64,000 bases of DNA, taken from the NCBI GenBank assembly GCA_963835575.1, contig CAWIGG010000002.1, forward strand, positions 1,568,001 to 1,632,000, read 5' to 3'. The translations under genes and the position numbers were made by a program. The stretch is from an uncultured Spirochaetota bacterium. Its GTDB lineage: Bacteria > Spirochaetota > Brevinematia > Brevinematales > JAOACQ01. Below are positions 45,205 through 63,730 of the stretch, one piece after another. How positions within the stretch are numbered: position 1 is the first letter of the stretch; every line of letters begins with the position of its first letter. Below the pieces are notes generated by a model. It did not search any database, was not told the DNA's origin, and saw only the letters and a program-made list of their open reading frames with translations.

Positions 45205-45758
45205 CACGAAGAACACCAAGAGCATCCTTCGCTAACGCTCAGGACAGGCTCCGAGTCACCAACGGGGTAATCCGCGAAGGCACGCGAATAGACGCGAATG
45301 GGGGAAGTTCGGTTAAATTTAAGAGGACAGGAGGTCAGGAAGAACCGGGGAATAGTTTTGGGTGTCATTTTTATTTTCTTTTCTTTATCATTATCAACAA
45401 GCCTTTTAATATAATTTTTCTGTAATTGAAAACACAGAGGGCACAGAGAAAAAAGAGAGCACGGAGAGTTTTTGTTTTGAATAATCCAGATTGTTTAATC
45501 CGTTACTCGATAGCATAGATAATTGATAAGGTAGGCTACGCCTGTTATACAAAAGAAATCAAATAAAAAAACCTTCAATTGTTTTATAAAAGCCGATGTA
45601 TCGACCCCAATTCATCGCGGATGACGCGGATTAGACGGATTGGCGGCGGATTTTATTTTTATTGACTTTTCTGGCTTTACGACTTTGCGAGAGATATTAA
45701 TTCACGCAAAGACGCAGAGGCAAGAGGGAAGAAAAGGTGGGCTATGCCCGCTGGACAA
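45205..45758 (+). repeat. left array of ordered repeat motifs (A-E)
   Basis: CGCGAAT x3 (45271), CAGGAAG (45327), CACAGAG x3 (45433), CGGAT x4 (45616), GGCTATGCC..GGACAA (45737); mirrored at 63396-63725. Confidence 0.8.
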
Positions 45759-45768
45759 AATATTTTAT

Positions 45769-47052
45769 GGGCGGTTTTAAAAACCGCCTAATTTATCAAC
45801 ACTTCCCTGATAATAGAAAATATTTTCAAAATATTTCTGCCAACAGGTTAAAAACTGTTTCTATTACCAAAATTCAGCCAAACACGGGCAATATTATCCA
45901 TATCTTCTGTATTTTAAGCCGCACAAGACGCAATTCGACCTTTTACCACAACATACCGTGCTAAATTATAAACCAGATTCATCAGCCCGATTTGGCTCTC
46001 TGCCCTTTCTTTTCCTATCGATCGTATTGTACTGCCGTTCATACTATTTTCAACAAAACCAAAAACATGCTCAACACGAACTCGGATGCGGCTCTTTCTT
46101 CTATTTTTTTCTTTCTGCTTCTCCGTCAATGGCTTATTTCTGTATCCTTTTTCGTGAATCCGGTTTTTCATCTCAAATTTTTCTAATATTCCTGCTACCG
46201 TTGGGCCAACATATGCGCTGTCCGCGTAAAACGGCTTCCCTTTGTCTTTCTCATTCAATAGAGGTTCAACTACCTGTGAATCGTGAACGCTCGCATCTGT
46301 CGTGACATAAGAACGAATAAGTTTTGACTTCACATCAACCTTTGTATGGTTTTTGTATCCGTAATGCCTCTCTTTATTCTTGGTCATCCAGCGCGCATCC
46401 GTGTCTTTATGGGAAAGCTTATGCGTATTATCTTTCCAATCTTCCGGAACCTCGCCTTCTTTTATTTTCTTGTTTTCTTCGCGGCTGTTCCTCTGCCGGG
46501 GAACATCCACAAAACTTGCGTCTACCATAACGCCCGCTTTCCCTATCACACCTTTATTCTCAAGATTCTCATCGAATATTTTAAAAAGTTTCTCTATTGC
46601 TTTCGCTTTCATCAGTTTTTCCTTGAATTCCCAGATTTTACTGTAGTCCGGAACTTTGTCCGAAAGTGTTATCCCAAGATATCGCTGAACGGATAACCTG
46701 TCATTGATCTGAAATTCCGCTTGCTCATCGGAAAGATTGTAATACCTCTGGAATATCAGTATCTTGAACATGAAAACATAGTCATAATGTGGCGCTCCGC
46801 CCGGCGCCTTCTGCTCTTTCGGCGCCAAAATCTCTGTTAACAGCGGCCGGAACATCTCAAAGTCTACAACCCTGTTAAGCTTATCCAGCGGTGTTTTTAC
46901 GCCGCTTAGCTTTTCCATCCGCTCCTGATATTCAAACAAGTTACGGTCTTTCCGCTTAATTTTTGTCATAGCCTTACCTCTGTTTTCTTTGACTATGATT
47001 ATATGTTTTTATATACTATTTGTATATGATACGTGGGTTTTTCAAACCGCCC
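45769..47052 (-). mobile_element. IS5-family insertion sequence
   Basis: TIRs GGGCGGTTT(T/G)AAAAACC; 4 bp TSD TTAT. Confidence 0.9.
45914..46969 (-). CDS. IS5-family transposase
   Basis: YNLSDEQAE, VPDYS, MVDAS, YGYKNH, VHDSQ, YADSAY and RVRVEHVFG motifs. Confidence 0.93.
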   Translation of the reverse strand: MTKIKRKDRNLFEYQERMEKLSGVKTPLDKLNRVVDFEMFRPLLTEILAPKEQKAPGGAPHYDYVFMFKILIFQRYYNLSDEQAEFQINDRLSVQRYLGITLSDKVPDYSKIWEFKEKLMKAKAIEKLFKIFDENLENKGVIGKAGVMVDASFVDVPRQRNSREENKKIKEGEVPEDWKDNTHKLSHKDTDARWMTKNKERHYGYKNHTKVDVKSKLIRSYVTTDASVHDSQVVEPLLNEKDKGKPFYADSAYVGPTVAGILEKFEMKNRIHEKGYRNKPLTEKQKEKNRRKSRIRVRVEHVFGFVENSMNGSTIRSIGKERAESQIGLMNLVYNLARYVVVKGRIASCAA

Positions 47053-47092
47053 TTATATAAGTGATCAATTTTATTTGATTGAAACTGTTGTA

Positions 47093-47222
47093 CTGACCCC
47101 AATTTTACAGGATTACCAGGATTATTCGGGATTTATCATAATAACTATTAAGAATCTTCGATTTTATTTTATGATCCTGTGAATCCTGTGGTATCAAGTA
47201 AATTCTGTTGAATTGGGGACAG
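47093..47222. repeat. GACCCCAAT/CAGGATT-type repeat (motif F) with local closing arm
   Basis: CTGACCCCAATT-TTACAGGATTACCAGGATTATTCGGGATT ... ATCCTGTGAATCCTGT ... AATTGGGGACAG; inverted homologue at 63299-63346. Confidence 0.75.
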
Positions 47223-47389
47223 AATAAATATGATACTTCTAATTTTCAATTTCCGTTCAGGCGTTATTTAATCCCAGCTTTTTTCTAAAGATTGATGATA
47301 TAGTAATTCTCTACCTTTTAACCAAGCGACAAAGCCGTATCGCCGTTATTATCCTTCACGTTTACCGTAGTCAGGTCGGCAGAGGCTTT

Positions 47390-48190
47390 TTAAATTTCGA
47401 TCGTATTCCCTGTAAAATTATAAAACACTTTATCTTTGAAGGATTCTTTCATAATTGCGTATTTTTCTATGCCTGTACAGTGACAGACACCGATTTTATT
47501 GATATTATATTTTAGTAATTCGCTTATTAATCTTCCGGTCAGGTCATTATCCGCGTCTTTCAGATGAAAGCCTCCGAGAACAAGGTTTATTGGGATTTGA
47601 AAAATATCCATGGCGGATAGAACAATATTTGAAATCCCCCTGTGGGAACATCCGCTTATGATATTCATTTTATTATCGCTGATGGTCACAATAAACAATT
47701 CATCAGTAAAAGTATCCTCAAGAAAATCATCGCCGTCTTTAATGAACATATTTGTAAAATGTGTATCCCAGACGTTTTTTATATCAATATTTGGAATAAC
47801 AAAAAAACCGGGGTATATTTCGGTAACATCTTTTACAAACCTGATTCTATGACTGAATAGCGCCTTATCATTTTTTATACCGATGAATTCTTCTTTATTT
47901 TTATATTTTGGGGTAAAAAAGCCTTCTTTGATATAAATCGATGCTTTTTGATTTATCCGGCAGAACGGCTCAAGCCCTCCAGCGTGGTCGTAGTGCCCAT
48001 GGCTTATTATGACCCTATCAACCTGCGACATATCAATGCCGAGGTTCTCCGCGTTTTTTATAAAATTTCCATCCTGCCCGGTATCGAAAAGGATTTTTTT
48101 ACCGTCCATTTCTATCAGAAGCGACAATCCATGTTCCGCTGTCAAATTTTTACTGAAAACAGTATTTTCTATTAAGACGGTGATCTTCAA
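47390..48190 (-). CDS. MBL-fold metallo-hydrolase (COG1237-like)
   Basis: AEHGLS, LFDTG, SHGHYDHAGG, GCSHRG, GGFH and CHCTG motifs. Confidence 0.88.
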   Translation of the reverse strand: MKITVLIENTVFSKNLTAEHGLSLLIEMDGKKILFDTGQDGNFIKNAENLGIDMSQVDRVIISHGHYDHAGGLEPFCRINQKASIYIKEGFFTPKYKNKEEFIGIKNDKALFSHRIRFVKDVTEIYPGFFVIPNIDIKNVWDTHFTNMFIKDGDDFLEDTFTDELFIVTISDNKMNIISGCSHRGISNIVLSAMDIFQIPINLVLGGFHLKDADNDLTGRLISELLKYNINKIGVCHCTGIEKYAIMKESFKDKVFYNFTGNTIEI

Positions 48191-48210
48191 GAAACCTCCT
48201 CTGGAGCCGT

Positions 48211-48855
48211 TTATTTCCTGGCAATGACCATCATATGTTCCACTTCTTTTTTCTGCCAGGCGCTGTATTCCATAATATTTTTTATGGACACCTCGCTGTA
48301 ATTTCTCAATAAATGCCTGACCTCTTCTTCAGTGAAAAAATGGTGGATGATATCGCCGTCGGGAGCGTCGATGTGCAGGAAAGAATTATTTTCCACCTCG
48401 ATAATATCCGGCCCGGCGACATATTTGTAAAATTCGACAGGGGTGATGATTATAAACAAAATCCCTTTATCTTTAATAATGCGCTCGATTTCATAAAACA
48501 TTTTCTTTATCTCTTGATACTTTCCATGGCTCAAAACATTAATGCATACCGCGAAATCATATTTTTCATGAATACCGGTCAGGTCCCTTAAATCGAATTG
48601 AGAAACCTTCACGTTATAAGAAGGTTTAAGATTTTGTTTTAGAATTTCTAGGGCGTTTACAGATGAATCGACAGCATGCACAAAATATCCTTTTTCGGCA
48701 AAATAGATGGAATACCTCCCGGTTCCGCACCCTAAATCTATTATTTTTTTAATATCGTTTTGCTTCATTATATTTTCAAAACATTCAATCAGGTTTTCAT
48801 TAGGTGTGCTGATGATCAAGTCCCGGTTTTTAAATAAATCGTTCCAGTCTGCCAT
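48211..48855 (-). CDS. class I SAM-dependent methyltransferase
   Basis: IIDLGCGTGR motif; RBS AGGAG before ATG 48855. Confidence 0.85.
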   Translation of the reverse strand: MADWNDLFKNRDLIISTPNENLIECFENIMKQNDIKKIIDLGCGTGRYSIYFAEKGYFVHAVDSSVNALEILKQNLKPSYNVKVSQFDLRDLTGIHEKYDFAVCINVLSHGKYQEIKKMFYEIERIIKDKGILFIIITPVEFYKYVAGPDIIEVENNSFLHIDAPDGDIIHHFFTEEEVRHLLRNYSEVSIKNIMEYSAWQKKEVEHMMVIARK

Positions 48856-48915
48856 TTTATTCTCCTTAAATTTTGTCAAAAAATTAAACAACTGCAATTC
48901 AAATAACGGAATATA

Positions 48916-49350
48916 TTACAGCATATTTTTTGTAATCCAATTTTTCGCGTCTTCGGAAATTTCCATTTTATTTAAAATATCATCCGGAATTCTAATCGGC
49001 TTATTGTTGTCTTTCATAATAAAACAATGTTCAGTATAGCCGTAACAAAGTAAATCTTTTTCATTTCGATAAATCAGATAATCCACACGGATTTTAGCGC
49101 GGGTGATTTTTGTAAAAGCCGCGTGAATCTGGATTTCATCATCAAAGTAGGCCGGAGAAACATATTTTGTAAACACTTTTGTTACCGGCAGCAGGATGCC
49201 TTTTGTTTCCAGTTCCCTGTAATTGATCCCGCACTCACGGAATAAATTCATACGCGCCAGTTCCATCCAGATGGTATGATTGGAATGATGTATAAACCCC
49301 ATCTGGTCGCTTTCTTCGTAGCGGGCGCGGATTTTAGTGATATTTATCAT
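48916..49350 (-). CDS. acyl-CoA thioesterase (YbgC/4HBT family)
   Basis: RYEESDQMGFIHHSN..WMELAR and PAYFDD motifs. Confidence 0.88.
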   Translation of the reverse strand: MINITKIRARYEESDQMGFIHHSNHTIWMELARMNLFRECGINYRELETKGILLPVTKVFTKYVSPAYFDDEIQIHAAFTKITRAKIRVDYLIYRNEKDLLCYGYTEHCFIMKDNNKPIRIPDDILNKMEISEDAKNWITKNML

Positions 49351-49474
49351 ATAATTCACCTCAAATTTATTATTAACGTCATGGTAAAAATGCCCGCCGT
49401 AAAACCGACTTGATGCGGGAGTTTTATTCCGGCGAGACGGCGTTTCATGGAAATCTGATCGCCGGCCGCCTTTA

Positions 49475-50041
49475 TTATTCCAATGTGACAGCGATCAGAA
49501 AAGGCGCCGACTCCTTTCCGTCAGAAACAAAATCAAATTCTGCGATTTCTATATCGGGGAAAGGATTGATCCAGGTATATTTATATAACTGAATGGAATT
49601 GCCAAGGGCCCTTGTCCTTTCATTATCACCCTTCCATGCGATTTCCGCGTCAGTAGGCAATTTATCCCCGGGGTAAAACCACCAGTCGACAACATAACGC
49701 TGATAGACAATTGGTATCATTTCTTTATTTCCATTAGAATAAAATACTCTATATTCTCCTATTTTTGTTCCTTCCCGGTCATGCCATGAAGCTCCATGAA
49801 GAAAATGGATTTTTTCTGCCTTCTGATTCACTTTTATTCCTTTGATTCCCGATGGATAATCGCAGCCGGTCCTTTCTTTTGAAATACTTCCCGACAGCTG
49901 AATCATTCCGTTTACGTCAAATGTGGTACCCGCGAATACACTGACGCCGTGCGGGATTGTTTTTAAATCATTCCCCGGCTTATGATGAATTTCATTATCC
50001 AGAGAATTGGTAAAATACCCGGATAAATTGATAAACTTCAT
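49475..50041 (-). CDS. hypothetical protein (beta-sandwich-like domain)
   Basis: RBS AAGGAGG; IHFLHG..W, DWW and WINPFP segments; function unknown. Confidence 0.6.
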   Translation of the reverse strand: MKFINLSGYFTNSLDNEIHHKPGNDLKTIPHGVSVFAGTTFDVNGMIQLSGSISKERTGCDYPSGIKGIKVNQKAEKIHFLHGASWHDREGTKIGEYRVFYSNGNKEMIPIVYQRYVVDWWFYPGDKLPTDAEIAWKGDNERTRALGNSIQLYKYTWINPFPDIEIAEFDFVSDGKESAPFLIAVTLE

Positions 50042-50089
50042 ACTTCTCACCTCCTTATATGATTTTTATGGCTTTTACATTGGAGTTCA

Positions 50090-51139
50090 CTACTGTCTTT
50101 CCAGATTTACATTACAATGCGGACACTTCAATGAAGAACAGGGTATGCCGGGCTGGTGGTCGATTTTATAACCGCATTGCGGACAGGCGCAATAACCGCC
50201 CGGACCTTTACCGGATGATTCTTCGTTTTCTTTTTTGAACCTGCCTTTTTTCTGCCAGCCGAACCCTTTGCCGAAAAAAGGATTATAAAACCCTGTCGAC
50301 ACTTCATGGCTTTCTATCTGGATCACGACATAAACAAGGTTTCCGATTTCTTTAATAAGTGTTTCTCTTAACTTGTTGGAAATATTTACCGCACTCTCCA
50401 CGTTTAAATTGCCCGGCAGTTTTATCCCTAAATTGGCGGTTATAACCGCACCTTTTTTCTGCGTCTTTAAAGAGGCAATTTCTATCTTATTTTCTCCGGC
50501 TATCGATTTTATTTTCTGCTCTATTTTCCCGCCTGCGGAAACATCCAGCAATGAATCAACCGCTTCCTTCCCAAGCGAAAGAGATTCCTTGATTATATAA
50601 AGGCCGATCAGTAAAGCCAGCAAAGGATCGGCATATATCCAATATTTAGCCAGGAACAAACCGCATAAGACCGCCAGGGAAACAAAAACATCAACTCTGG
50701 AATGGACGCCGTCTGAAAGCAGGGCTATGGAATTTTCTTTTTTCCCGAAATGTATTTTCAACCGCGCCATAATTTCATTAATGACCGCCGAAAACACCAT
50801 AACCGTAAATGCAAGATAATCTATTTTTATTTTTTGAGGTTTAATAAATCCCTGATAGGCCTCATAAACGATCCCCAGACCCGTACCGAGCAATATCAAA
50901 GTGATAACGGCGCCGGCTAAAACTTCAAATTTATAATGACCGTAAGGATGTTTTTCATCGACCGGTTTTTTGGAGATTTTAATTCCGATAAATCCAATGG
51001 CTGAAGCGAAAATATCCATGAATGAATGCAGCCCTTCAGCCAAAACCGCGGCGGATTTAGTTATTATTCCCGCTGTGATTTTTCCGCCGGCTAAGATTAT
51101 GTTTATAAATATGGAAATTACAGCCACTTTTTCTTTCAT
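50090..51139 (-). CDS. cation diffusion facilitator with C-terminal Cys-rich zinc-ribbon extension
   Basis: AEGLHSFMD, HPYGHYKFE and DGVHSRVD motifs; tail GPGGYCACPQCG...PCSSLKCPHC. Confidence 0.88.
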   Translation of the reverse strand: MKEKVAVISIFINIILAGGKITAGIITKSAAVLAEGLHSFMDIFASAIGFIGIKISKKPVDEKHPYGHYKFEVLAGAVITLILLGTGLGIVYEAYQGFIKPQKIKIDYLAFTVMVFSAVINEIMARLKIHFGKKENSIALLSDGVHSRVDVFVSLAVLCGLFLAKYWIYADPLLALLIGLYIIKESLSLGKEAVDSLLDVSAGGKIEQKIKSIAGENKIEIASLKTQKKGAVITANLGIKLPGNLNVESAVNISNKLRETLIKEIGNLVYVVIQIESHEVSTGFYNPFFGKGFGWQKKGRFKKENEESSGKGPGGYCACPQCGYKIDHQPGIPCSSLKCPHCNVNLERQ

Positions 51140-51184
51140 ATCAATTCCTTCGGGGAAAGTTTTCAAATAAATTATTTGAAGATT

Positions 51185-51493
51185 TCAACTCTTTTTTATT
51201 TTTTCTATTTCTTCCTCCACTTCAGCGGCGCCTTTGTCATAGAATTTTTCCTCATCCGGTTCAAGGTGCTTCAACAGCCTTAAGAATTCCCCGGCGTGCA
51301 CCCGTTCTTCATCCGCTATGTCCTTTAACACTCCCTGTACCAGCTTATCGTCGATTGATTCCGCAAGCTGCATGTAAAGCTGGACGGCTTCGTACTCCGC
51401 GGCGATCATAAATCTCACCGCGCGGACCAGTTCTTCATGGGTTAATTTGCGGTCCTTCGCAAGGCCCGAAAATGCTGTACTGAATTCAGGCAT
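51185..51493 (-). CDS. ferritin-like (rubrerythrin-family) small protein
   Basis: AAEYEAVQLY and DIADEERVHAGEF diiron motifs. Confidence 0.85.
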   Translation of the reverse strand: MPEFSTAFSGLAKDRKLTHEELVRAVRFMIAAEYEAVQLYMQLAESIDDKLVQGVLKDIADEERVHAGEFLRLLKHLEPDEEKFYDKGAAEVEEEIEKIKKS

Positions 51494-51531
51494 GTTCTTC
51501 CTCCTGTAATTGATTATTTCTTAATATATTA

Positions 51532-51984
51532 TTAATCATAATGTATTCTAATCTCTTTGTCAGACATAACAGGGGCCAGTATTTCCTTCCATTCCGGAGC
51601 TTCCCAGCTTCTAAGTTTTTCATGTGTTTCCAGGTATTTTGCCGGGATGGGATGCGTTCCCATTACAATCTTGAGATTAAATCGTTTCTGTATAAAGGAG
51701 CGGAAATAATCCAGATACGGACAGGGAGGATAACCCACAAGCAGTCCGGTGGCCAGGTGAATGACTTCCGCGCCGTTTTTCTTCATTTCTTCCGGGGCGT
51801 ATTCGATATTCCCGCCCGGGCATCCGCCGCAATCGGCAAAACCAACCAGTTCCAGCTCTTCATCATCGCCGTAAACGCTGAAAGCCCCATGTCTTTCACG
51901 AAGCGCTCTCAGGCATTTACCGCCGGCGCATGACCTGTAGCGGCCGCAAGTAATGATGCCTAATTTAATAATTTTCTTCATCAT
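51532..51984 (-). CDS. CGGC domain protein
   Basis: CAGGKC, CGGCPG, PPCP and MGTH motifs. Confidence 0.85.
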   Translation of the reverse strand: MMKKIIKLGIITCGRYRSCAGGKCLRALRERHGAFSVYGDDEELELVGFADCGGCPGGNIEYAPEEMKKNGAEVIHLATGLLVGYPPCPYLDYFRSFIQKRFNLKIVMGTHPIPAKYLETHEKLRSWEAPEWKEILAPVMSDKEIRIHYD

Positions 51985-52025
51985 TTACTCCTATGTATAA
52001 TTTCAAGTATTTTGACTAAATATTT

Positions 52026-53033
52026 TCAAGCCTTATTATTTTTCAAATAATAAAACACTTTTACTACTAACTTCCTGGCAATCGCAACGATTGCTTTTTG
52101 CTTGCAGGTTCTGCTTCTTAAGTCATCGTAGTATTTCCGCATATAAGGGTCGAATCTTACCGCTGCCCACGCGGCCTGTACTATCACTCTTAATATAGCT
52201 TTATCTGTATTCCTTGTAATGTGCCCGCCACGGTTTTTCTCATCACTTTCATTGACTTTGGGCGCCAATCCGAGATATGACACCAGTTTTTTATGGCTGT
52301 CAAAACGCTCAATATTTTCTATCTTCGATACCAGATATGCGCCGCACGTTTTACCTATCCCGTCAATCTCTTTCGTAATGGTCTGGTATGCCTTATCAGT
52401 TGCGCAAAGCCCGAAAATCTGATCGTCCAGTTCTTTTATCATCTCATTATATTCTATAACCAATTGGTATTGTCTCTTAATCCCTTCTTTGAGCGCTGGA
52501 GAAAGAACAAGACCTTCCAACCAGGCTTCATCTCTTTTCTGTCCCATAAACAGCTTTTTTTCAGGAGCAAGTCCCCAATAATCCAGCATCGCTATAATCA
52601 GGTTCTTAGTCTCTACTTTCTGCCGAACCAGCTTTTCTCTTATCTTCAATAGCCCTTTTACTTCCGCCCATTTCTCGCTTTTGACCAGACAGTAAGACAA
52701 TTCTTCTTTTTCAAACCGTCGCAATATGATTGCGATTTTTTCCGCGTCTACACGGTCTGTCTTCTTGGTCTTATCCATCAAACTTTTAAGTTCAATGGTG
52801 TTTAGGATTAACACATCTTTTGCCAACCGTTCTGCTTTTTTGGCCAAGTCCCATGTCTAGGTCGTTGATTCCACGCCCATCACTGTGTCTTTGTCAATTT
52901 CATTCAAGAAATCCGAAACTCCTGCCGAATTTCTTTCATAGCGTTTGACTTCCTTTTGACCTGTCTCTAAAATAATGCAGACAGTCATTTGTTTTTTGTG
53001 GATGTCAACGCCGACCCACTTTTTTGCTTCCAT
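52026..53033 (-). pseudogene. IS110-family (DEDD) transposase with in-frame amber stop
   Basis: MEAKKWVGVDIHK..., VESTT*TW (TAG at 52857-52859), KTDRVDA, IDGIG, SYLGLAP and KAIVAIARKL motifs. Confidence 0.88.
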
Positions 53034-53058
53034 AACTTACCTCTCGATTTTATTTGAG

Positions 53059-53254
53059 AGGCTTGAAAATACTCGGTTTTATCAGGTTTGAGTTACCGCA
53101 CTCCTATCCGGGGATTTATCCCCATTATGGCGGTTCGGGCAAGGACTCGATCATACTCCTAACGGGGTGTTACCCCATAAAAATGATTCGGTCTTTGTCC
53201 TATTCAAGCTCTCGCGCTCATTTTCGGCGCGGGAGCTTTATTTTCTTCAAGCCT
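53059..53254 (-). ncRNA. putative IS110 bridge RNA
   Basis: Two internal loops, each enclosing a GGGG..CCCC hairpin; closing stem AGGCTTGAA/TTCAAGCCT; located 5' of the transposase. Confidence 0.7.
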
Positions 53255-53256
53255 GA

Positions 53257-53892
53257 TTAATCATACCATCTCCTTGAATCAAAATCAGAAAATTTCAACT
53301 CCGGATCATCGGGTAAATGAAAACCTGCAGGCGGTATGCCAAGCCCCTCCGCGAATCTGCCCCAATAATTCACCTTCCCCACCAGCACAGCCAAAATCAC
53401 TATTTCTTCCGGCAAAAAAAGCCGTTTCACGTCCGCAATCACATTTTTATCAACCTGAATAGGCGTTTTTGAAAGCATGGCCGCATAACGAATGGCTGCC
53501 CGTTCGCGTTCAGTAAAAGATGCCGCCGTTTCCAGATCCCGCTCGCCGCGCAAAACAGCCATTTCATCGGGTGTTATATTATATTTATCTCTCCGGTGCG
53601 CATTGATGTCAATTAAAAAGGAACTGGAAACTTCAAAAGAGATACGAAGCCGAATCAGCGCGGTTATACGTTTACCAAGCTTCTTGCCGCCATTCTCCGC
53701 CGATGTCTCCAAAAGTCCGGACGCTATACCAGCCATCGGGCGCCATGCCAATAGCCGGGCCGGCAACATAGTTCTGCCGGTGCTCTGTTCACTCAAACAA
53801 ATGAATGGCTGTAAATAAAAAGGAATACACTGCGGCGGATCAATATAAGGTTTTGAAACTGCCGCACCTGCCCTGGCCGCTTCAGGATGCAT
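53257..53892 (-). CDS. carboxymuconolactone decarboxylase/AhpD-like protein lacking CxxC
   Basis: LIRLRIS..SSSFLIDIN, FTERERAAIRYA, EEIV, NYWGRF and GIPPAGF segments; RBS AGGAGG. Confidence 0.75.
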   Translation of the reverse strand: MHPEAARAGAAVSKPYIDPPQCIPFYLQPFICLSEQSTGRTMLPARLLAWRPMAGIASGLLETSAENGGKKLGKRITALIRLRISFEVSSSFLIDINAHRRDKYNITPDEMAVLRGERDLETAASFTERERAAIRYAAMLSKTPIQVDKNVIADVKRLFLPEEIVILAVLVGKVNYWGRFAEGLGIPPAGFHLPDDPELKFSDFDSRRWYD

Positions 53893-54009
53893 AATTTCCT
53901 CCTTTTGATTGTGAGAACACCTGGGGAAAAGCGACATAAAGAGCTAACAGAACCGGCAGGTTCTCACTTTCAATCCTCCCAGACTAGCCAACGCCATATG
54001 CCCATATCG

Positions 54010-54096: not shown

Positions 54097-54135
54097 AATC
54101 AGCCTCTATTATGTTATTGATATCTTTATGTTTGT

Positions 54136-55089: not shown

Positions 55090-55185
55090 AGTTATATCTC
55101 CTTCATAATTTGATAAAAATGAGTGTAATAAAAACACCGCGGGGGATCCGGTGCCCGGATTTTCCCCGTGATCCTTATGCCCGTC

Positions 55186-55554
55186 TTAATGACAATGGCT
55201 GTGCTGGCAGGCGTTTTCCGCCGATAATTCACCGAGTTCATTCTTTTTGTATTTCATAATTATCTCATCGACGGACAGCGCGTTTTCGGCATAATAAACT
55301 TTCATTCCAAGGGCGTTCAGTTTTTCAACGGCGCGGATTCCCATGCCGCTGCAGACAACAGCTTCGACTTGATTTTCTATTAATCCGTCCGCCGGCTGGC
55401 ATTGGCCATGTTCATGTTCCTTATTGCCGTTGTCAATAAAGCTTAAAACGCCGGTTTGAGCTTCAAAAACGGCATAATAGGGAGCGCTGCCGAAATGGCC
55501 GTAAACAATGGATTTCAATCCATTCATGTTTTCTGTGGGGATTGCGACTTTCAT
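55186..55554 (-). CDS. NifB/NifX family Fe-Mo cluster-binding protein
   Basis: MKVAIP, HFGSAPYY and VVCSGMG motifs; His-rich segments. Confidence 0.88.
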   Translation of the reverse strand: MKVAIPTENMNGLKSIVYGHFGSAPYYAVFEAQTGVLSFIDNGNKEHEHGQCQPADGLIENQVEAVVCSGMGIRAVEKLNALGMKVYYAENALSVDEIIMKYKKNELGELSAENACQHSHCH

Positions 55555-55579
55555 AATATATTCCTCCAATAGAATACTT

Positions 55580-56203
55580 TTATTTTTTATAACTTTTTAA
55601 TACGACAAATCCGCCCGTGTCATGCCCTCTTTTAAAGGGCTGTATTTTGTTTTTAAATTCAAACAGCGTTTGCTTTGACTCCAGTCCTGTAAAACCGGCG
55701 GATTTTAACAGTCCCATGACCTCCCGGACCCGGTAAAATTTCGCCTGTTTATAAAACCGGCTTTTATCTTTATTCTCAAAATAAAACCGGCCTATCTTAC
55801 TTTCCAGCGGTACAAAACCAATCAGGATAAAACCGCCGGGTTTGATTACCCTGAAAGCTTCCTTTAAAGCACGCGCCGGGTCGTCCAGAAAGCAGATGGT
55901 CGTAATCAGCGCCGCGAAATCAAAGGCATTATCCGGCAGGGGTAAGTTCTCGGCGTAAGCCCGGATGACCTTCAGCCCTTTTTTTAGAGAGAGTTTCGCC
56001 ATTTCCTTTGAAGGTTCTATGCCCATTTTAATTCCAAGGGGCAGGGCGAACCTGCCGCTGCCGCTACCGATTTCAATCCCGTTTAAGCCATCGGGAATAA
56101 AACTTTTAATCAGCCCCAGTTCGGAAAGGAAAACGGCTTCATTCCTTTCAAACCATTTCTCATAATCGTCTGGGTATTGATTAAAAACTTCAACTCCCGG
56201 CAT
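55580..56203 (-). CDS. class I SAM-dependent methyltransferase
   Basis: IEIGSGSGRF, AENLP and RVIKPGG motifs. Confidence 0.88.
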   Translation of the reverse strand: MPGVEVFNQYPDDYEKWFERNEAVFLSELGLIKSFIPDGLNGIEIGSGSGRFALPLGIKMGIEPSKEMAKLSLKKGLKVIRAYAENLPLPDNAFDFAALITTICFLDDPARALKEAFRVIKPGGFILIGFVPLESKIGRFYFENKDKSRFYKQAKFYRVREVMGLLKSAGFTGLESKQTLFEFKNKIQPFKRGHDTGGFVVLKSYKK

Positions 56204-56507
56204 TCGGGTCTCCCCACAAAGGATCGGCTCCGAATTTTTTCGTCCAGAACTCCTCCGGCGGAATATGCTTTTCTATTTCGTCCCTTGAAAACGATATGGG
56301 GAATTGATTGCAGTAATTTATCAATAATTTACCCGCGTATAATATGTCCCTTGTTTTTTCTTCGCATAGTCTTTTATCTTCCCCACACCTGTCCGGATGC
56401 CATTTTTTCAGCAAGTCTTTATATTTCTGGGTTACGGTGCTGATACTAGCCTGTTCCGGAATGTCCAGAATCTGCCTGGCCTTTGTTATTTCTTCATATA
56501 ATCCCAT
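56190..56507 (-). CDS. J-domain protein
   Basis: KKWHPDRC motif; C-terminal FGADPLW. Confidence 0.85.
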   Translation of the reverse strand: MGLYEEITKARQILDIPEQASISTVTQKYKDLLKKWHPDRCGEDKRLCEEKTRDILYAGKLLINYCNQFPISFSRDEIEKHIPPEEFWTKKFGADPLWGDPNAGS

Positions 56508-56515
56508 ACAGGTTC

Positions 56516-56866
56516 CTATTTAGACGGTTTTTCCGGCAGGCGGCAGCAGCCGTCATCCTTTAAATCCGTTCCTTTTGCAAGAACTCCGGAATATTCTTTA
56601 TGACGCCGGTAAAATGTGACGGCGTAAGAACAGGACGGATTGACCTTCAGCCCTTTTTCCCGCACGAAATCGGAAAATCCGGTCAATAAGGCTTCGGCGA
56701 TCCCCTGCCCGCGAAGGTCCGGGTGGACATAGGTCTGGAACAAATCAACGGTCGAAGAATCGATAAATTCATAAACCGCTTCGCAGTGATACCCGTCATG
56801 GTCGCAATAAAAGCTTTTTGTCGTTTCATCATGGATAATGGCGAACTTTTTTGTTTTTCCAATCAT
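56516..56866 (-). CDS. GNAT family N-acetyltransferase (YjdJ-like)
   Basis: TYVHPDLRGQGIA and PSCSYA motifs; RBS GGAGG before ATG 56866. Confidence 0.82.
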   Translation of the reverse strand: MIGKTKKFAIIHDETTKSFYCDHDGYHCEAVYEFIDSSTVDLFQTYVHPDLRGQGIAEALLTGFSDFVREKGLKVNPSCSYAVTFYRRHKEYSGVLAKGTDLKDDGCCRLPEKPSK

Positions 56867-56916
56867 AAGAATTATGCCTCCCTGGAAATTATTTTGTATG
56901 TATATCTGCGACCCTG

Positions 56917-57384
56917 TTATTCTGATTTTTCCATTTGCCGGTGGCCGCATCTTCCGCCCTGGCGTGAGCATCCCCTATCATCCGGGTGCCGGTGAATATT
57001 GGCGCTCCGGCATTGCGGGCATATTGCAGGATGTCCCGTGCCGAAAGGTAAAGACCATACATGTTTGCAATCATAACAGAGAAATTTTCTTTCCGACATA
57101 TTGACATGACCTCCTTCGATTTTTACGGCTTTGCCGTTAATGAGAGCGTCCGCGACTTTTTTCCTTGCCGATTCGATAATATTGCCGAAAGTCTGCCGGG
57201 AAACATTCATTTTTTGGGCGGCTTCTTCCTGATACAGGCCCTCCAGGTCGGCCAGGCGCAGGGCTTCCAGTTCATCCAAATTTAATGCAACTATATCAAG
57301 ATTGGATACCGGAATTCCGGCAGGTTTGAAGAACAGGGTATCGGGACTGAAATCGACTTTTCTGCATTTCATCGGTCTCGGCAT
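56917..57384 (-). CDS. DUF134 HTH protein with C-terminal zinc ribbon
   Basis: MPRP.KCR, FKPAG, ELEALRLAD, QEEAAQKMNVSRQTF, CYDC and CPQC motifs. Confidence 0.9.
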   Translation of the reverse strand: MPRPMKCRKVDFSPDTLFFKPAGIPVSNLDIVALNLDELEALRLADLEGLYQEEAAQKMNVSRQTFGNIIESARKKVADALINGKAVKIEGGHVNMSERKFLCYDCKHVWSLPFGTGHPAICPQCRSANIHRHPDDRGCSRQGGRCGHRQMEKSE

Positions 57385-57420
57385 ACTGCCTCCCTATTTA
57401 ATTTATGTTAATATAATATT

Positions 57421-57690
57421 TCAGATTAAAAAGTCGATCATATCCCTTTCACGAAGCATCCTTCTTTTCCAGGCTGATATTCCCGGAACGCTGTAAGGAA
57501 GCAGGCGGAGGGAATAATAGGACGGAATGACAGGTATTCCAATCATATTCCCGGCATTTATCAGCATAAACAGGTGATCCGAGTCTATTCGGGCTTTTAA
57601 AGCAAAACCGGCCATGCCGTACCCTGACAATCCGTAAAAGAAACCCTTTAAAAAATTTAACGCTTTATAAACTCTTTTCAGACTCAGCAC
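57421..57690 (-). CDS. small conserved hypothetical protein
   Basis: RBS AGGAGG before GTG 57690; FFYG..., IGIPVIPSYYSLRLLPY...WKRRMLRERD resembles small proteins of cstA/ArsA-like operons (from recall). Confidence 0.6.
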   Translation of the reverse strand: MLSLKRVYKALNFLKGFFYGLSGYGMAGFALKARIDSDHLFMLINAGNMIGIPVIPSYYSLRLLPYSVPGISAWKRRMLRERDMIDFLI

Positions 57691-57751
57691 TTTATACCTC
57701 CTGTGAAAGATCATGATCATTTATTTCACAGCTCTTTATCCTGTTCTTCAT

Positions 57752-59554
57752 TCAATACACCCGGTCATTCCAGGTCTTTTTATTCACCTCAAAAATCAGC
57801 GTCTTTTCAGCGATCTGCCTGATGTTCCTGCCCTCGCAGCCGCGGGGGACCATCCAGCAGACAGCCCTTTCGCCTTTAAAATATTTCATCGCGCAAGCCA
57901 GGGCTTTTTTAATCGAATAAGGCTTTGTTGAAACAATATTGATCATAATCATAAGCCAGTTGACGGAATAGTGGCTGATATTGGAGCCCTGTTTTAAAAG
58001 CTGGGTGACGGACGGGCCGGACGTCTTCTTTTTCGCGTGGCCGAAATCAGGCGCTTCCGCTTTTCCGACAGGGTTGAGCTTGGTTGCCCTGCAGAAATCG
58101 ACAGTCGCCCACCGTGCAATTGCTTTTGATGAAGCGATTTTTGAATAATTACAGCCGTAGATATCGATGATCAATTCAAAAGCTGACGAAAAACCCTCTT
58201 CCATCGGAAGCTTAAAATCCTTTAAAAAGATTTTTGAGCATTCTGTCATTTTAGGGAGCAATACCTCGCTAGAAGGCAGAAGCTTTCTGTTGTCCTTAGC
58301 CAGCCTTGCTTGATAGATCAGGCTTTTCCTGCGGATCTCCCTGATGTCGGAAAATGACCCGCGGGGGACATGCCAGCAAACGCTGTTCACGGCCCCGTAA
58401 TAAGACAGTGTATAGGAAACGGCGTCTTCCACCGGAAGAGAGGCGCATGTAAAACAATTGGCGCATCCTGTCGCGCCGTACTGCCTGTAATTGATTGCGC
58501 TGGTTTCTATATACTGGACAAGCGTATCGCCCTCGCCGAAGTCCCGGTTTGAGACCATCGGTTCGCCATAAGCGATCATATTGATGGCCTCGCAGGTTTC
58601 CCTACTCCATCTGGCTATTTTTGAAACCGAAGGGATTTTTTTGCTATTCAGTGCGATGTCCATAACGACTTCCTCGCCGTATTTGTCCTGTTCGAGCCGG
58701 CCCTGGAATTCCGGGTAAACAACTGTGGAAATATCCGGCGAATACCACCTGCTTTTGATCCCTGAGATTTTATACGCCTTCCTGGCGTTTTGAGCGGCTT
58801 TCGTGAAGACCTTGCGGCCTTTTGATCCGGCCGTCAGGCTGAAAGGCCCGCCGATGTAGCTGACGTTTGACAACTGGATGACCCTGACGTCGTCAAATGT
58901 GCGTTCAATCTGCCGCCAGCTTCCGGGGCATTCCGAAGGCTGAAGGATGAGAGAACCGGTTTGATGAATAGCTATTCCTCCGTCCACCAGGGCATCGTAA
59001 ACGCACTGGTAAAAATCGGTGCTGAAGAGGCTTTTTGCCGGTCCTATCGGGTCCGCCGAGTCGATGATCACCAGGTCGCATTTGCCCTTCATGGAGCGGA
59101 TGTCTTCCGCACCGTCGCCGATGATCAGGCGCAGGCGTTTATCATCCCAGATGCCTTCCGAAACAGACGGCATGAATTCCCTGCATTTATCGATCACCAT
59201 CCTGTCGATCTCGACCATGGTGACGGTTTTTACAGATTTATGTTTGAGGACTTCCCTGGCCGCGCCACCGTCGCCGCCGCCGATGATCAGAACATTTCTG
59301 GCCGGCTTTAAGAGCAAAAACATGGGCCAGTGTACGATCCATTCGTGGTAAATGCCTTCGTCTTCCTCCGTCAGCTGAACAATATTGTCGAGTATCAAAA
59401 CGCGGCCCAGCCGTTCAGTTTCCAGGATCATTATTTTCTGATGGCCGGTGTCCGTTTCCGGGACAAGGACTTTGGAAACTTTAAAGCCGTAATTAATATC
59501 CGTATAAAGGTCTTCATAAAACCAAAATTCGTTTCTCTTTTTTATCAATCCCAA
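57752..59554 (-). CDS. speE: polyamine aminopropyltransferase fused to two tandem S-adenosylmethionine decarboxylase-like domains
   Basis: N-terminal SpeE motifs (GRVLILD, YHE, VLIIGGGDGG, VEID, IIDSADP); two C-terminal repeats each ending xxCWxVPRG, the first with QYIETS and FTC. Confidence 0.85.
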   Translation of the reverse strand: MGLIKKRNEFWFYEDLYTDINYGFKVSKVLVPETDTGHQKIMILETERLGRVLILDNIVQLTEEDEGIYHEWIVHWPMFLLLKPARNVLIIGGGDGGAAREVLKHKSVKTVTMVEIDRMVIDKCREFMPSVSEGIWDDKRLRLIIGDGAEDIRSMKGKCDLVIIDSADPIGPAKSLFSTDFYQCVYDALVDGGIAIHQTGSLILQPSECPGSWRQIERTFDDVRVIQLSNVSYIGGPFSLTAGSKGRKVFTKAAQNARKAYKISGIKSRWYSPDISTVVYPEFQGRLEQDKYGEEVVMDIALNSKKIPSVSKIARWSRETCEAINMIAYGEPMVSNRDFGEGDTLVQYIETSAINYRQYGATGCANCFTCASLPVEDAVSYTLSYYGAVNSVCWHVPRGSFSDIREIRRKSLIYQARLAKDNRKLLPSSEVLLPKMTECSKIFLKDFKLPMEEGFSSAFELIIDIYGCNYSKIASSKAIARWATVDFCRATKLNPVGKAEAPDFGHAKKKTSGPSVTQLLKQGSNISHYSVNWLMIMINIVSTKPYSIKKALACAMKYFKGERAVCWMVPRGCEGRNIRQIAEKTLIFEVNKKTWNDRVY

Positions 59555-59621
59555 TTTTTCCCTCCTTTTCTGAAACCGGCAGAAGATGTATTTGTAAGCA
59601 TTTCAATAATACTTCAAACAT

Positions 59622-60380
59622 TTATTTAATAGTCTGATCAAGAGCTTTTTCAATCTTTTCGGATAATTCCCCCAGCAATCCTCGCGTTATTTCGCTTGAT
59701 AAGTCAAGTCCCTGTGAAGGTATGGACGCTATTTCCTTTGTCATTGGAAGACGCATCAATATATTCTCCTGCAGAATGGACTCTTCCGGTTCCGGAAAGA
59801 ATGAAAAGCTCTTGCCGCATTCAGGGCAGACAATGGCGCTCATATTTTCAATAACACCCAGTATCGGGATACTCAGCATCTCCGCCATCTGGACGGATTT
59901 ATTCACGATCATGGAAACCATATCCTGAGGGGTGGTCACTACCAGAAGTCCGTTCAGCGGGATTTTCTGCATGACGGTCAGCGCCACATCAGCCGTACCG
60001 GGAGGCATATCCACTACAAGATAATCAAGTTCTCCCCATTCCACATCCGTCCAGAACTGTTCGATGGCTTTTGTCAGAAGCGGCCCCCGCCAGACAACCG
60101 GTTTGTTTTCATCTTCCAGCAGCAGATTCATCGAAACAACCGATATCCCCTGCTGTGTTTGAAAAGGCAGGAGTTTGCCGCCGTCGGTGAGAATTCTGCC
60201 CAGTTTTAATTGAAATAACCGTGGAATACTCGGGCCGGTTATGTCCGCGTCCAGTACGCCGACTTTATAACCTTTCAGGGCCAGCGCGTTTGCCGCCAGA
60301 AAAGTAACGGTGGATTTACCGACCCCGCCTTTCCCGCTCATGACCCCGAAAATGCTTTTTATCTGACTGGTATTTTCCAT
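59622..60380 (-). CDS. Mrp/NBP35 family ATPase (Fe-S carrier)
   Basis: SGKGGVGKS, DADITGPS, WRGP, DMPPGT and ENMS..CPEC motifs. Confidence 0.92.
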   Translation of the reverse strand: MENTSQIKSIFGVMSGKGGVGKSTVTFLAANALALKGYKVGVLDADITGPSIPRLFQLKLGRILTDGGKLLPFQTQQGISVVSMNLLLEDENKPVVWRGPLLTKAIEQFWTDVEWGELDYLVVDMPPGTADVALTVMQKIPLNGLLVVTTPQDMVSMIVNKSVQMAEMLSIPILGVIENMSAIVCPECGKSFSFFPEPEESILQENILMRLPMTKEIASIPSQGLDLSSEITRGLLGELSEKIEKALDQTIK

Positions 60381-60395
60381 GAATTTATTTCTCCT

Positions 60396-60441
60396 ATAAA
60401 TAGCATATGCTAATTATAGTTAAAAATTTGGTTATTGTCAA
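60396..60441 (-). promoter_or_regulatory. consensus sigma70 promoter overlapped by a palindromic operator
   Basis: Minus strand TTGACA-N17-TATAAT, overlapping ATAATTAGCATATGCTATTTAT. Confidence 0.8.
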
Positions 60442-60825
60442 ATGCCAGAAATAAAATATTAAAGTAATTTTGATAAGGTTAGGAAAAATAATTAATGGCA
60501 GTTTTTGCCCGGCAAGGGACCCTGTCATCACCATTCCGTCCAACCGGTGCTGCGTTTAACTGTTGCGGTCATGCAAAGGTATGAACAGATTTACGCTGAG
60601 AGGAAAAGAAAAATGCAATATACAATGGGTGTTATATAATATAGTGCATAATATAAGTAAAATTCATGTATTAGGAGGATTATGATGCCGTAAAGCATCC
60701 GCAGCGGAATTGACGGCTGAATGAGGCTGATTCAATCAAAATTATGACGGTTTAACCGGAAATACTTCCCCGGTTGAACAACAGGGAAATCAGCATTTGA
60801 AAATGAATTTTTCTAAAAGCCCGTT

Positions 60826-62547
60826 GAGTCTGTCGAAAAAGTGATATTTAATGTAAATTATTATCGATATAGCTTAAAATAATGAATGAAATAAATCAAT
60901 AGCGGAAGGTTATATGGCAAGATACAAGACAGTTAATTATGAGCAGATGGAAATGATACCGCTCAATTTTTCAGATCAGCTGATCGAAGGAACATATGAA
61001 CACACACTCAATTTCCTAATCGAGGAAAAGGCTGACCTTTCCTGTTTTGATATAAATTATAAAAATGATAAAACAGGCTCGAAAGCGATTTCTCCGGCAA
61101 TTCTTCTGAAAATAATCCTTTTTGCCTATTCGAAAGGTATTACTACATCACGCAGGATTGAGGAAGCTTGCCGGGTGAATGTCATCTTCAAAGCCCTGTC
61201 CGGGAATACCGTTCCAGACCATTCCACTATAGCCGCTTTTGTTACCGGTATGAAAGACCGGATTAAAATAGTATTTCAGTTTGTGCTGATGGTCTGTTCT
61301 TCTGCGGGATTGATCGGCGGGGACATGTTCGCCGTTGACGGCTGTAAATTGCCTTCAAACGCTTCTAAAGAATGGAGCGGTACATTCAAAGACCTGAAAA
61401 AGAAACAGGAAAAGTTTGAAAAGCTGGCGGCATTTCTACTGGAAAAACACGCGCAAGCTGACTGCTCCGGCGAAAATGAAAAGTCTAAAGCGCTTCAAAA
61501 AAGATCGGAAAAAATACGGAAGAAAGCGGAGAAAATCGATGCCTTTCTCAAATCCCAGAATCCCAAATACGGCAAGCGGGGACGTGAAAACCAATCGAAT
61601 ATTACCGATAACGAAAGCGCGAAAATCAAGAGTTCCCACGGTGTGATACAAGGTTATAATGGACTTGCGGTAGTGGATTCAAAGCATCAGGTGATTACCG
61701 CGGCGGAAGCTTTTGGTTTAGGCCAGGAAGGGGAAGTATTGAAGCCGATGGTTGAAATAACGGAGGAAAATTTAAGCGTGATAAAAGGAGAAACAAATCC
61801 GCTGGAAGGAAAAACAATACTGGGGGACACGAATTATTTCAGCGAAGAAAATCTAAAATATCTGGCGGAAGAAAAGAAGATGGAAGCTGTGATACCGGAC
61901 AATCAATTTCGAGGGAGGGATGAACGGTTTACCGATCGGGGAAGGTTCAAGCCGAAACCGATGAAATACCGGGAACACGATTTTGAAAAAAATGAAGCTG
62001 ATAATACTTATATATGCCCGAATGGAAAAATATTAAGCTATAAGGGATACCAGAGGCAATTGAGTAATTTCGGCCATAAATATCAGGCCAGGCAGGCGGA
62101 TTGTTCAAAATGCGGGAAAAGGGGACAATGCTTAAAACATCCCGATAAGACAAGGCAAAGAACATTATATCTGGTGGACAAAAGAGGGGATAAAAACTAT
62201 TCAAAAGAAATGGTAAATAAAATTGATCTGCCGGAAATCAGGGATTTGTACAGCCGGAGGATGGGAATAATTGAGCCGGTATTCGGTAACATCCGTTCTT
62301 GTAAAGGTATGGACCGTTTTACGCTCAGGGGTAAGAGTAAGGTTAATATCCAGTGGCTTTTGTTCTGTATAGTGCATAATATTGGTAAAATCCAGATATT
62401 TGGTAAGATTTAAGGGGGTGTTCATAGCCATAATACCGGCTTGAAATTGGAAAAATGGAAAATCCGGATAGAGAAATGAAAAATGATACTCTATCCGGCT
62501 TTCAGAAGACAGTTTTTATTCTCGTTTTTGGCTTTTTCGACAGGGTC
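60826..62547 (+). mobile_element. IS1182-family insertion sequence
   Basis: TIRs GA(G/C)(T/C)CTGTCGAAAAAG; GTT flanks both ends. Confidence 0.85.
60914..62413 (+). CDS. IS1182-family transposase
   Basis: SRRIE, PDHSTIA, AVDGCK, QGYN, YICPNG, CSKC..RGQC and IEPVFG motifs. Confidence 0.92.
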   Translation: MARYKTVNYEQMEMIPLNFSDQLIEGTYEHTLNFLIEEKADLSCFDINYKNDKTGSKAISPAILLKIILFAYSKGITTSRRIEEACRVNVIFKALSGNTVPDHSTIAAFVTGMKDRIKIVFQFVLMVCSSAGLIGGDMFAVDGCKLPSNASKEWSGTFKDLKKKQEKFEKLAAFLLEKHAQADCSGENEKSKALQKRSEKIRKKAEKIDAFLKSQNPKYGKRGRENQSNITDNESAKIKSSHGVIQGYNGLAVVDSKHQVITAAEAFGLGQEGEVLKPMVEITEENLSVIKGETNPLEGKTILGDTNYFSEENLKYLAEEKKMEAVIPDNQFRGRDERFTDRGRFKPKPMKYREHDFEKNEADNTYICPNGKILSYKGYQRQLSNFGHKYQARQADCSKCGKRGQCLKHPDKTRQRTLYLVDKRGDKNYSKEMVNKIDLPEIRDLYSRRMGIIEPVFGNIRSCKGMDRFTLRGKSKVNIQWLLFCIVHNIGKIQIFGKI

Positions 62548-62576
62548 GTTGTGTGAAGTAACCGTTGCAAACGGTT

Positions 62577-63188
62577 TCATTTATTTGCTTGTAATATAAT
62601 TGTATTCTTTTCTATCATTATCTTAATTTCTTTGAAACTATGTTTAGATAATGCTTCTCTATATTCTTTATCATTTTTAAGTCTAACAAAATCCCACCAT
62701 TTTGTTCCTTTTTTTGGATATCCATTTACTATTAAAAATATCCCATTCAGTTTCAAAACTCGTTTAATTTCATTAATAGATTTATCAAAATCATTCCAAA
62801 AATTTATAGTATCAAAAGCAGTAATAATATCAAAAAAATCATTCTCATAAAGTAGTTTGCTTACATCTCCTTGGATAATATTAACATTACCATCACGAAT
62901 ACCTTTTTTATTAATTTTTTTTGACAGACTAACCATATCCATAGAATGATCAATTCCAAATATTTTTGCATTTTTTAATAAAGAAGAAAAGATGCTTATT
63001 GTTTTTCCTCCACCACATCCAACATCAAGTATTGATATCTGATTTTTTATGTCAATCTTATCAATAAGATGCTTTTTAATGATCTTTTTGTATTGATTGT
63101 TATGAATCAAGTTCATTATTATTCCAGCAAATCGTCCTTTAATTCCTATAGGCTTTGATCCAATTGTCTGCATTTCATTAGTACTCAT
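62577..63188 (-). CDS. class I SAM-dependent methyltransferase (AT-rich)
   Basis: ILDVGCGGG, GIDHS and RVLKLNG motifs; RBS AAGGAG. Confidence 0.88.
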   Translation of the reverse strand: MSTNEMQTIGSKPIGIKGRFAGIIMNLIHNNQYKKIIKKHLIDKIDIKNQISILDVGCGGGKTISIFSSLLKNAKIFGIDHSMDMVSLSKKINKKGIRDGNVNIIQGDVSKLLYENDFFDIITAFDTINFWNDFDKSINEIKRVLKLNGIFLIVNGYPKKGTKWWDFVRLKNDKEYREALSKHSFKEIKIMIEKNTIILQANK

Positions 63189-63298
63189 TATTTCTCCTTT
63201 GCAAAGTTATTTCGTACAAAAAGTGAGATTATTAAATATCCATCATAAAAATTATACTTCACTAACCCCCGCCTATGCAATATTTATAATAAATTTTG

Positions 63299-63725
63299 AA
63301 TCCTGCTAATCCCGTTAAATCCTGAGAATCCTGTTCTATTGGGGTCTAACAACCCGCTTTAATAAAACAAGAAAGAATTTCTAAATCATAATCCCTTGTC
63401 CGCCAGGCATAGCCACTCCTTAACCCCGGTTCCCCGCCAACCTTCTCCGCATCAGCCAGATATCGGGTGAAATCAAAAGGCGGCATAGTGTAAAACTAAA
63501 TCCTATAAATCCGCCCTCATCCGTGAAAATCAGTGTGCAGAATCGGATATTATCTAAAAGAGTTGTTTATAAAATCTTTTTTTATAGCTATAAAGAATTG
63601 AAGTGAAAGCGATCTCCGTGTTCTCTGTGAACTCCGTGGCCGACCCCCGAAACCCTTCCCGACTTCCCGACTTCCTGTTAATCTTTACCGTTTCCTATTC
63701 GCGTCCATTCGCGTGGCTTAGCGGA
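63299..63725 (-). repeat. right array of ordered repeat motifs (F'-A'), mirror image of 45271-47133
   Basis: Reverse complement gives CGCGAAT, CAGGAAG/CGGGAAG, CACRGAG, CGGAT, GGCTATGCC..GGACAA and GACCCCAAT-CAGGATT in the same order. Confidence 0.8.
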
Positions 63726-63730
63726 AGATT

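Follow-up and report, generated by a model that had tools for sequence, protein, structure and literature searches.

Integron platforms place a fixed promoter before exchangeable gene cassettes. A comparable arrangement, in which a fixed promoter-like sequence fronts exchangeable AT-rich single genes, is seen at a locus in a 64,000-nucleotide stretch of DNA from an uncultured Spirochaetota bacterium (contig CAWIGG010000002.1, positions 1,568,001 to 1,632,000; the window, meaning this whole stretch), where six short repeat motifs, A to F, stand in mirror order around a 16 kb accessory gene block between a phosphohexomutase gene and a DUF58 gene. Three other kinds of described system, for which we draw on the available parts of the papers cited, also share features with this locus. 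In doublets of repetitive extragenic palindromes (REPs) that form hairpins (REPINs), with their REP-associated tyrosine transposases (RAYTs), inverted doublets are the replicating unit, singlets are remnants and blooms are lineage-specific, and one small enzyme gene is flanked by the repeat family (PMC3116915). Bacterial interspersed mosaic elements (BIMEs) and neisserial intergenic mosaic element (NIME) arrays are intergenic mosaics of several families with opportunistic insertions of insertion sequences (ISs), and NIMEs and minimal mobile elements have alternative cargo at syntenic positions, for which exchange by recombination has been proposed (PMC1797815). In composites of miniature inverted-repeat transposable elements (MITEs), such as integrons flanked by integron mobilization units (IMUs), small non-coding repeats flank passenger genes (PMC3184786).

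The mirrored motifs of the window are best explained as the deepest example of compound brackets that occur genome-wide, and not as a mobile 16 kb cassette. In its full form the element consists of two inverted arrays, or arms, of one 7-letter word with a GxxExxY (PF13366) nuclease gene between them. Such elements have undergone a bloom in this lineage; they stand at the 3' ends of genes, nested within each other rather than side by side. The junctions and spacers of their composite arms recur at distant loci, and the full 18.4 kb at the ancestral junction of the two core genes is enclosed by an A element whose left and right ends are both of the proper type. The locus is probably a compound nest of these GxxExxY-type word-array brackets acting as a landing pad.

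Word arrays and GxxExxY genes across the genome

Intergenic arms were called with a purpose-built regular-expression detector in the genome holding the window (G000, with contigs C2, C4, C5 and C6 named below; G001, G002, G003, G004 and G008 are relatives), which yielded 650 arms against 4 in one shuffle. Each arm is a direct array of a single 7-letter word with a period of 9-10 nt, and a de novo word count recovered the same words at this period. The A word has 80 exact matches in G000 and 0-1 in each of 11 relatives of the same family. Most copies of the element are empty hairpins of 65-320 bp. Runs less than 0.7 kb apart face inward in 141 of 171 cases, and the inner family is the same in 101 of the 119 closest pairs (30.5 expected), so that the arms of this genome are, as in REPINs, mainly inverted doublets.

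All nine GxxExxY genes of the genome have adjoining word arms, as judged by eye. When these were pooled with 29 from other genomes of the phylum, the resulting 38 loci showed the same word on both sides at 17, different words at none, a word on one side only at 9, and no word at 12. Words A, C, F, G, K and T were each seen bracketing GxxExxY genes, the C words doing so in other genomes of the phylum, and the three A-type GxxExxY proteins are 74-81% alike mutually and 37-54% alike to the rest. The suggestion of the preliminary description that the words belong to families flanking GxxExxY genes is thus borne out both by the genome's own genes and by the phylum loci. Neither Pfam nor tblastn found a GxxExxY gene or remnant in the window, and the window element would therefore be a non-autonomous derivative. 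As a separate observation, the single four-helix-bundle (PF05635) gene of the genome (G000:C6:2181-2498) is bracketed by inverted arrays of a different, 14-nt tandem repeat.

Arms of several families account for 94 of the 522 runs, and they follow a common outer-to-inner order near K/B, A, C/V/T, E, D, F. With the window arms excluded, 154 of 204 family pairs agree with this order, against a null mean of 128 and maximum of 140 (100 shuffles, refitted), and 23 of the 24 arms that have at least three families and lie within 130 bp of a gene begin at the gene's 3' end. Since 13 of 14 arms have E ahead of H, E counts as a flank of the H-F/D arm rather than as a bracket family. K comes before an A arm in 14 cases, but before 0 of the 59 A arms of right type, a pattern that points to the copying of ready-made composites. 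The nesting of different families, proposed from the window alone, proves real genome-wide, as overlapping pairs of different families at most 6 kb long are nested in 9 cases (7 loci), crossing in 1 and side by side in none. Independent nests are also present (i) in G002, where T encloses A and both surround some 1 kb of AT-rich DNA, in the form T(A(cargo)A)T, and (ii) in a metagenome contig of 58% GC, where C stands outside D.

Within G000, the locus C4:995673-997567 is a five-family mirror nest (K A V E D ... D E V A) around one DUF2971 gene of 28% GC; its two arms are each other's best match by sequence, which makes it a cleaner test case than the window. At C6:240778-243579 both arms are of the form K-A(left type)-B. 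Outside the lineage, a pattern search of the genome collection did not find the E-H-D/F composite, its 11 scattered matches lacking surrounding arrays and being put down to chance; the K-A junction pattern had no match in viral contigs, and the A-B junction pattern matched 1 metagenome contig.

The phosphohexomutase/DUF58 junction and its contents

The features of the locus, by window position, are as follows.

43826..45178, + strand: phosphohexomutase gene, left core flank (Pfam PGM_PMM I-IV), with DUF58 as neighbour in G004, G002 and G001
45205..45220, + strand: K-word arm (CACGAAG type), unmatched on the right, belonging to the recurring K-A(left type)-B composite
45262..45302, + strand: A arm, left-type end with TAAT leader
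45327..45342, + strand: B words (CAGGAAG type), a satellite trailing A, K or F arms at other loci
45433..45469, + strand: C arm, CACAGAG words
45534..45652, + strand: first E-H module and D words (E at 45534, overlooked in the preliminary description; H leader at 45603)
45675..45726, undirected: G-word pair, back-to-back (close then open), unmatched on the right, 90.7% over 75 bp to G000:C5:6790-6864
45737..45758, + strand: second E motif, the upstream flank of an E-H-F arm interrupted by IS5
45769..47052, - strand: IS5-family element in the E-H spacer, 4-bp TTAT duplication, 22 genome copies
47095..47220, undirected: complete F(...)F hairpin, the left F with its own local closing arm
47388..60456, - strand: accessory block, including IS110
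52026..53040, - strand: IS110-family transposase, single copy (start coordinate approximate)
60826..62547, + strand: IS1182-type element, 3-bp GTT duplication, 30-40 bp behind the methyltransferase stop
62577..63188, - strand: methyltransferase gene, 25% GC, directly behind the promoter-like end of the F' arm
63251..63280, - strand: promoter-like inner end of the F' arm (TTGCAT, 18 nt, TATAAT)
63299..63346, - strand: F' arm with H leader, partner ambiguous
63396..63414, - strand: E' motif, upstream flank of H-F'
63499..63553, - strand: D' arm with P-type leader (the other leader type seen on D arms)
63614..63638, - strand: C' arm
63655..63677, - strand: B' words
63694..63728, - strand: A' arm, right-type end with TCTT leader, 6 bp past the DUF58 stop
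63731..64000, - strand: 3' end of the DUF58 gene, MoxR operon, right core flank

All six motifs lie in mirror order at, or a few bases from, the positions first reported for them, and recomputation returned the same identities (28/32 for A and A', 31/39 for F and F'). The labels of the phosphohexomutase, the DUF58 gene and the IS5-type, IS110 and IS1182-type transposases were upheld; the names IS5 and IS1182 are presumably apt for the window elements, being taken from Pfam domains and general knowledge of those families. The left F arm at 47095, in contrast, had been read as open toward F', when it has a closing arm of its own at about 47174-47220. This hairpin, taken as a 146-nt stretch, folds with z = -4.65, none of 200 shuffles being as good, and the F(...)F unit matches G000:C2:1764067-1764232 at 85.5% over 166 bp.

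The spacers between the motifs had been described as unrelated, which is not simply so: the A-B junction is 75% alike between the two arms over 75 nt, and positions 45579-45611 in the left arm are 79% like 63338-63370 in the right. On the right, the C'-D' spacer matches G000:C2:1319994-1320142 at 86% identity over 152 bp, and a stretch of 320-340 bp in the right arm resembles the arms at C4:970740 and C5:158691 at 67-69%; the spacers are repeat-family sequence. The likeness of the A-B junctions would also suit an origin from a single ancestral long terminal inverted repeat, or from one arm copied across by template switching, with the spacers decaying later. Such copying would fit C6:240778-243579, with its two arms of one type, and the mutual best matches at C4:995673-997567, and template switching is described as perfecting inverted repeats in proteobacteria in the available part of PMC5941160. 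In the window, however, the A ends are of different types, the leaders of D and D' differ, and every spacer resembles distant loci more than it does its mirror counterpart, so that we regard this origin as quite improbable.

A DUF58 ortholog is present in 5 of the 30 relatives searched. The phosphohexomutase and DUF58 genes abut in G004 (5 bp between matches), lie 125 bp apart and motif-free in G002, and are separated in G001 by 2.6 kb that holds other genes but no arms; G003 and G008 have them on separate contigs, where other genes, and no arms, come after each of the two. Because the two genes are neighbours in three same-genus relatives (G004, G002 and G001), the junction is ancestral, as had been supposed. 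The junction also accepts cargo without brackets (G001, G003), and the same is true of C4:370487 in G000, which is empty in G003 (23 bp) and holds 1.4-6 kb of other DNA in three relatives. Elsewhere in G000, a second bracketed locus with left and right A ends (C2:1245846-1250841) has an empty counterpart of 5-33 bp in each of the same-genus relatives (4 of 4). The bracket interiors at C4:995673, C4:710384, C6:240778 and C5:158532 are mostly absent in relatives, with flanks too rearranged or poorly aligned to give the exact empty site.

By Pfam, the accessory block encodes an MBL-fold protein, methyltransferases, a thioesterase, a CDF transporter, rubrerythrin-like, CGGC, HMGL-like and NifB/NifX-like proteins, together with DnaJ, GNAT, DUF134, a spermidine synthase fusion and an Mrp/NBP35 ATPase. 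Positions 47388-60456 have a sister copy at G000:C5:255970-267619 (97.4% over 6.4 kb and 85-88% elsewhere, with 100% identity in seven consecutive 500-bp bins, about 3.5 kb), at the ends of which no arms were found. Parts of the block also occur without arms in G004, at 84-88% and beside a DDE transposase gene, and in G008. In none of these three copies (G000:C5, G004 and G008) were bracket and cargo found as a unit at another site. The unbracketed copies indicate that the block circulates on its own.

These data bear on the explanation first offered, in which six independent open/close pairs, each with its own nuclease or recombinase, captured the 16 kb and can excise, invert or move it. In its favour are the mirror order, the ancestral empty junction, the bracketing of GxxExxY genes by A, C, F, G, K and T words, and the mutual likeness of the A-type proteins as against the rest. 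Against it, F closes locally, E travels with H-F/D as a flank and not as a family, the cargo exists arm-free in G000 and two relatives, in G001 and G003 the junction is filled with different cargo and has no arms, and the window has no GxxExxY gene or remnant. The idea of six independent pairs is largely refuted for F and E, the block gives no sign of capture by the brackets as a unit, and the explanation as a whole has very little probability.

The methyltransferase gene at 62577-63188, on the other hand, behaves like a real single-gene passenger of a bracket. A homologous G-rich version of the TTGCAT-18-TATAAT motif follows an arm at five loci, and these five arms each front a different open reading frame (ORF) of 21-26% GC. 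The F' motif was not reported by a consensus promoter scanner, which demands at least 4/6 matches to TTGACA. In bracket loci of 0.6-6 kb (n = 25), 20 of the 45 enclosed ORFs fall in the lowest GC decile, and 12 of these 20 have no Pfam family. Low-GC ORFs are bracketed in 7 of 204 cases as compared with 30 of 2802 for the others (p = 0.011), and in 0 of 204 in the outward-facing control. This enrichment, with the locus C2:1245846-1250841 that is empty in relatives, confirms that brackets enclose lineage-specific AT-rich genes. A 64% homolog of the methyltransferase lies in G002 between repeated spacers of about 75 bp without word arms; that locus (L111:960-2200; G002:C2:1.8547-1.8559 Mb) is an array of AT-rich ORFs with repeated imperfect hairpin spacers of about 75 bp, and is cassette-array-like.

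Several further observations concern the block and its insertion sequences. In the comparison of window 56574-60456 with G000:C5, about 3.5 kb is 100% identical and other parts 85-93%; the identical stretch may be a very recent duplication or gene conversion, or an assembly artefact. At 57752-59554 spermidine synthase is fused to a weakly scoring S-adenosylmethionine decarboxylase-like sequence, and copies of the fusion lie in G000:C5 (within the identical stretch) and at C6:99027-100833 (87%). The IS110 transposase is broken by an in-frame TGA near its start. For the IS1182-type element, GTT is duplicated at all 6 genome copies with both ends readable, and its flanks resemble what we take to be integron attC cores. 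Targeting of arms by IS5 was considered and rejected, 3 of 22 copies lying within 300 bp of an arm as compared with 18.7% of random intergenic points. Tyrosine-recombinase matches number 23 genome-wide (unsorted by class), with none in the window, and a Pfam scan found no integrase gene in the accessory block. Elsewhere in the window, 21747-21957 and 25565-25775 form a 211-nt inverted repeat (97%, 3.6 kb apart), and 27082-31674 is a tandem duplication with 2389-bp spacing, partly 100% identical.

Pairing of the two arms and a possible history

Whether the facing arms belong together can be judged first from the A ends. Among the short A pairs, 32 of 43 combine a left with a right end, none are of the same type and 11 are unclassified, and 35 of the 36 A elements with readable ends are left+right; the window A and A' are likewise left and right ends, 18.4 kb apart. 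As to family order, the right arm is the unique best match to the left arm (6 families) among 93 other multi-family arms, and two of the only 6 runs in 522 with at least five families are those of the window. These findings, and the five-family mirror at C4:995673-997567, whose partners rank first by sequence, argue against a chance facing, in which independent 3'-end composite arrays behind convergent genes would mirror one another through their common order, with no pairing across 18 kb. A chance facing draws, for its part, on the common order and 3' bias of the arms, on the position of each arm's closest sequence relatives elsewhere, and on the left-arm surplus that has no mirror: K at 45205, a second E-H at 45534/45603 (the first along the arm) and the G pair at 45675/45703. 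The preliminary description had itself named ordered arrays common as 3' elements as grounds for taking the pairing as chance, and this applies in part, as there are 94 multi-family runs with a shared order and long-range partner matching is marginal. On balance we think a chance facing unlikely.

A number of results nevertheless weigh against the compound nest. For the facing multi-family pairs (n = 18) the order score is 22 against 16.9 expected (p = 0.052); without the window locus it is 17 against 14.0 (p = 0.16), a non-significance that speaks for chance facing. The outer family matches in 4 pairs where 3.6 are expected, no better than chance, and inner-family matching, strong below 3 kb, falls to 1 of 11 at 3-8 kb. 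The long A pairs (n = 14) are left+right in 6 cases, same-type in 3 and unclassified in 5. The sequence score of the partner arm is 54 against a best of 140, which places it outside the left arm's 12 closest arms. The 36 A elements show no target-site duplication (longest direct repeat in 14-nt flanks 3.19, against 3.20 when shuffled; p = 0.55). None of the GxxExxY genes at the 38 phylum loci has B, D, E or V words at its sides, the arm detector missed at least the local closing arm of the left F, and the promoter link holds for 5 of 28 motif matches against a null of 6.8%, for a motif picked after the window locus had been seen. Finally, no close relative has an intermediate state, so that insertion events were not observed. 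An 'empty target' joined from two A leaders has only 3 occurrences and is uninformative. In three low-depth DNA contig sets no contig spans the block, and no joint across it was seen.

Under the compound nest, further elements and ready-made composite pieces (K-A-B, C-P-D and E-H-F) would have been added inside the A element, by insertion into its AT-rich loop and by recombination or copying between homologous modules, the latter keeping the order collinear and thus giving the mirror arrangement. The loop would act as a neutral landing pad that attracts further insertions and tolerates ISs and blocks; it may have gained one AT-rich gene behind the promoter-like end of F', then the ISs and the 13 kb bracket-independent block. 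From co-occurrence only, the small elements, and not the 16 kb block, are likely to be mobilised in trans by a GxxExxY nuclease. A bolder version, which we put forward as possible though doubtful, would make the nested brackets an integrase-free gene-capture platform, in which hairpin loops are opened by their cognate GxxExxY nucleases and entered by further elements in a fixed hierarchy, the innermost arm promotes expression of the landed foreign gene, and composite arms serve as portable homology that swaps contents between loci and lineages.

Relation to described systems

The locus works in the manner of REPIN/RAYT systems and of NIME arrays with minimal mobile elements, and resembles MITE composites, but it belongs to none of these. 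The arms differ from REPINs in being arrays of 7-letter words rather than REP palindromes with a tag of the GTAG/CGTC type (PMC3733652, available part). Their partner is PF13366, of the PD-(D/E)XK fold, and not an HUH tyrosine transposase, although no search was aimed at RAYT genes; the function of PF13366 is listed as unknown in the accessible portion of PMC3424549. Ordered REPIN clusters, moreover, are tandem in the sections of PMC3116915 at hand, whereas the arrangement here is nested and multi-family. Compared with the NIME arrays, no single dRS3-like repeat is involved, and the modules are ordered, polar and bracket-forming (PMC1797815, in part); an arm here carries a promoter-like end, and no dedicated recombinase has been shown. 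MITE composites, as far as the available text of PMC3184786 goes, differ in that the flanks here are not two identical MITEs and no target duplication was found; there is also no cognate DDE transposase here, and the large cargo moves without arms. Unlike an integron, the locus holds one gene per bracket instead of an array, and there is no integrase gene in the block.

In the open-licence literature, supplements excluded, we found no published account of the GxxExxY word-array element or of its nesting. The window lacks the autonomous form of this element, with the gene in the loop, and A and A' share with it the same word, inverted arms and asymmetric ends. For the reading of genomes, the locus illustrates that a 'bracketed island' as striking as this one of 16 kb can come about even though the brackets did not move it. 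A nuclease family of unknown function gains testable candidate substrates, and the data suggest an integrase-free way of placing and expressing accessory genes at gene 3' junctions. Overall, the apparently undescribed GxxExxY word-array element is extended here from a single cassette to a genome-wide architecture that comprises ordered nesting, composite arms and, newly described here, a promoter-like arm end fronting exchangeable foreign genes.

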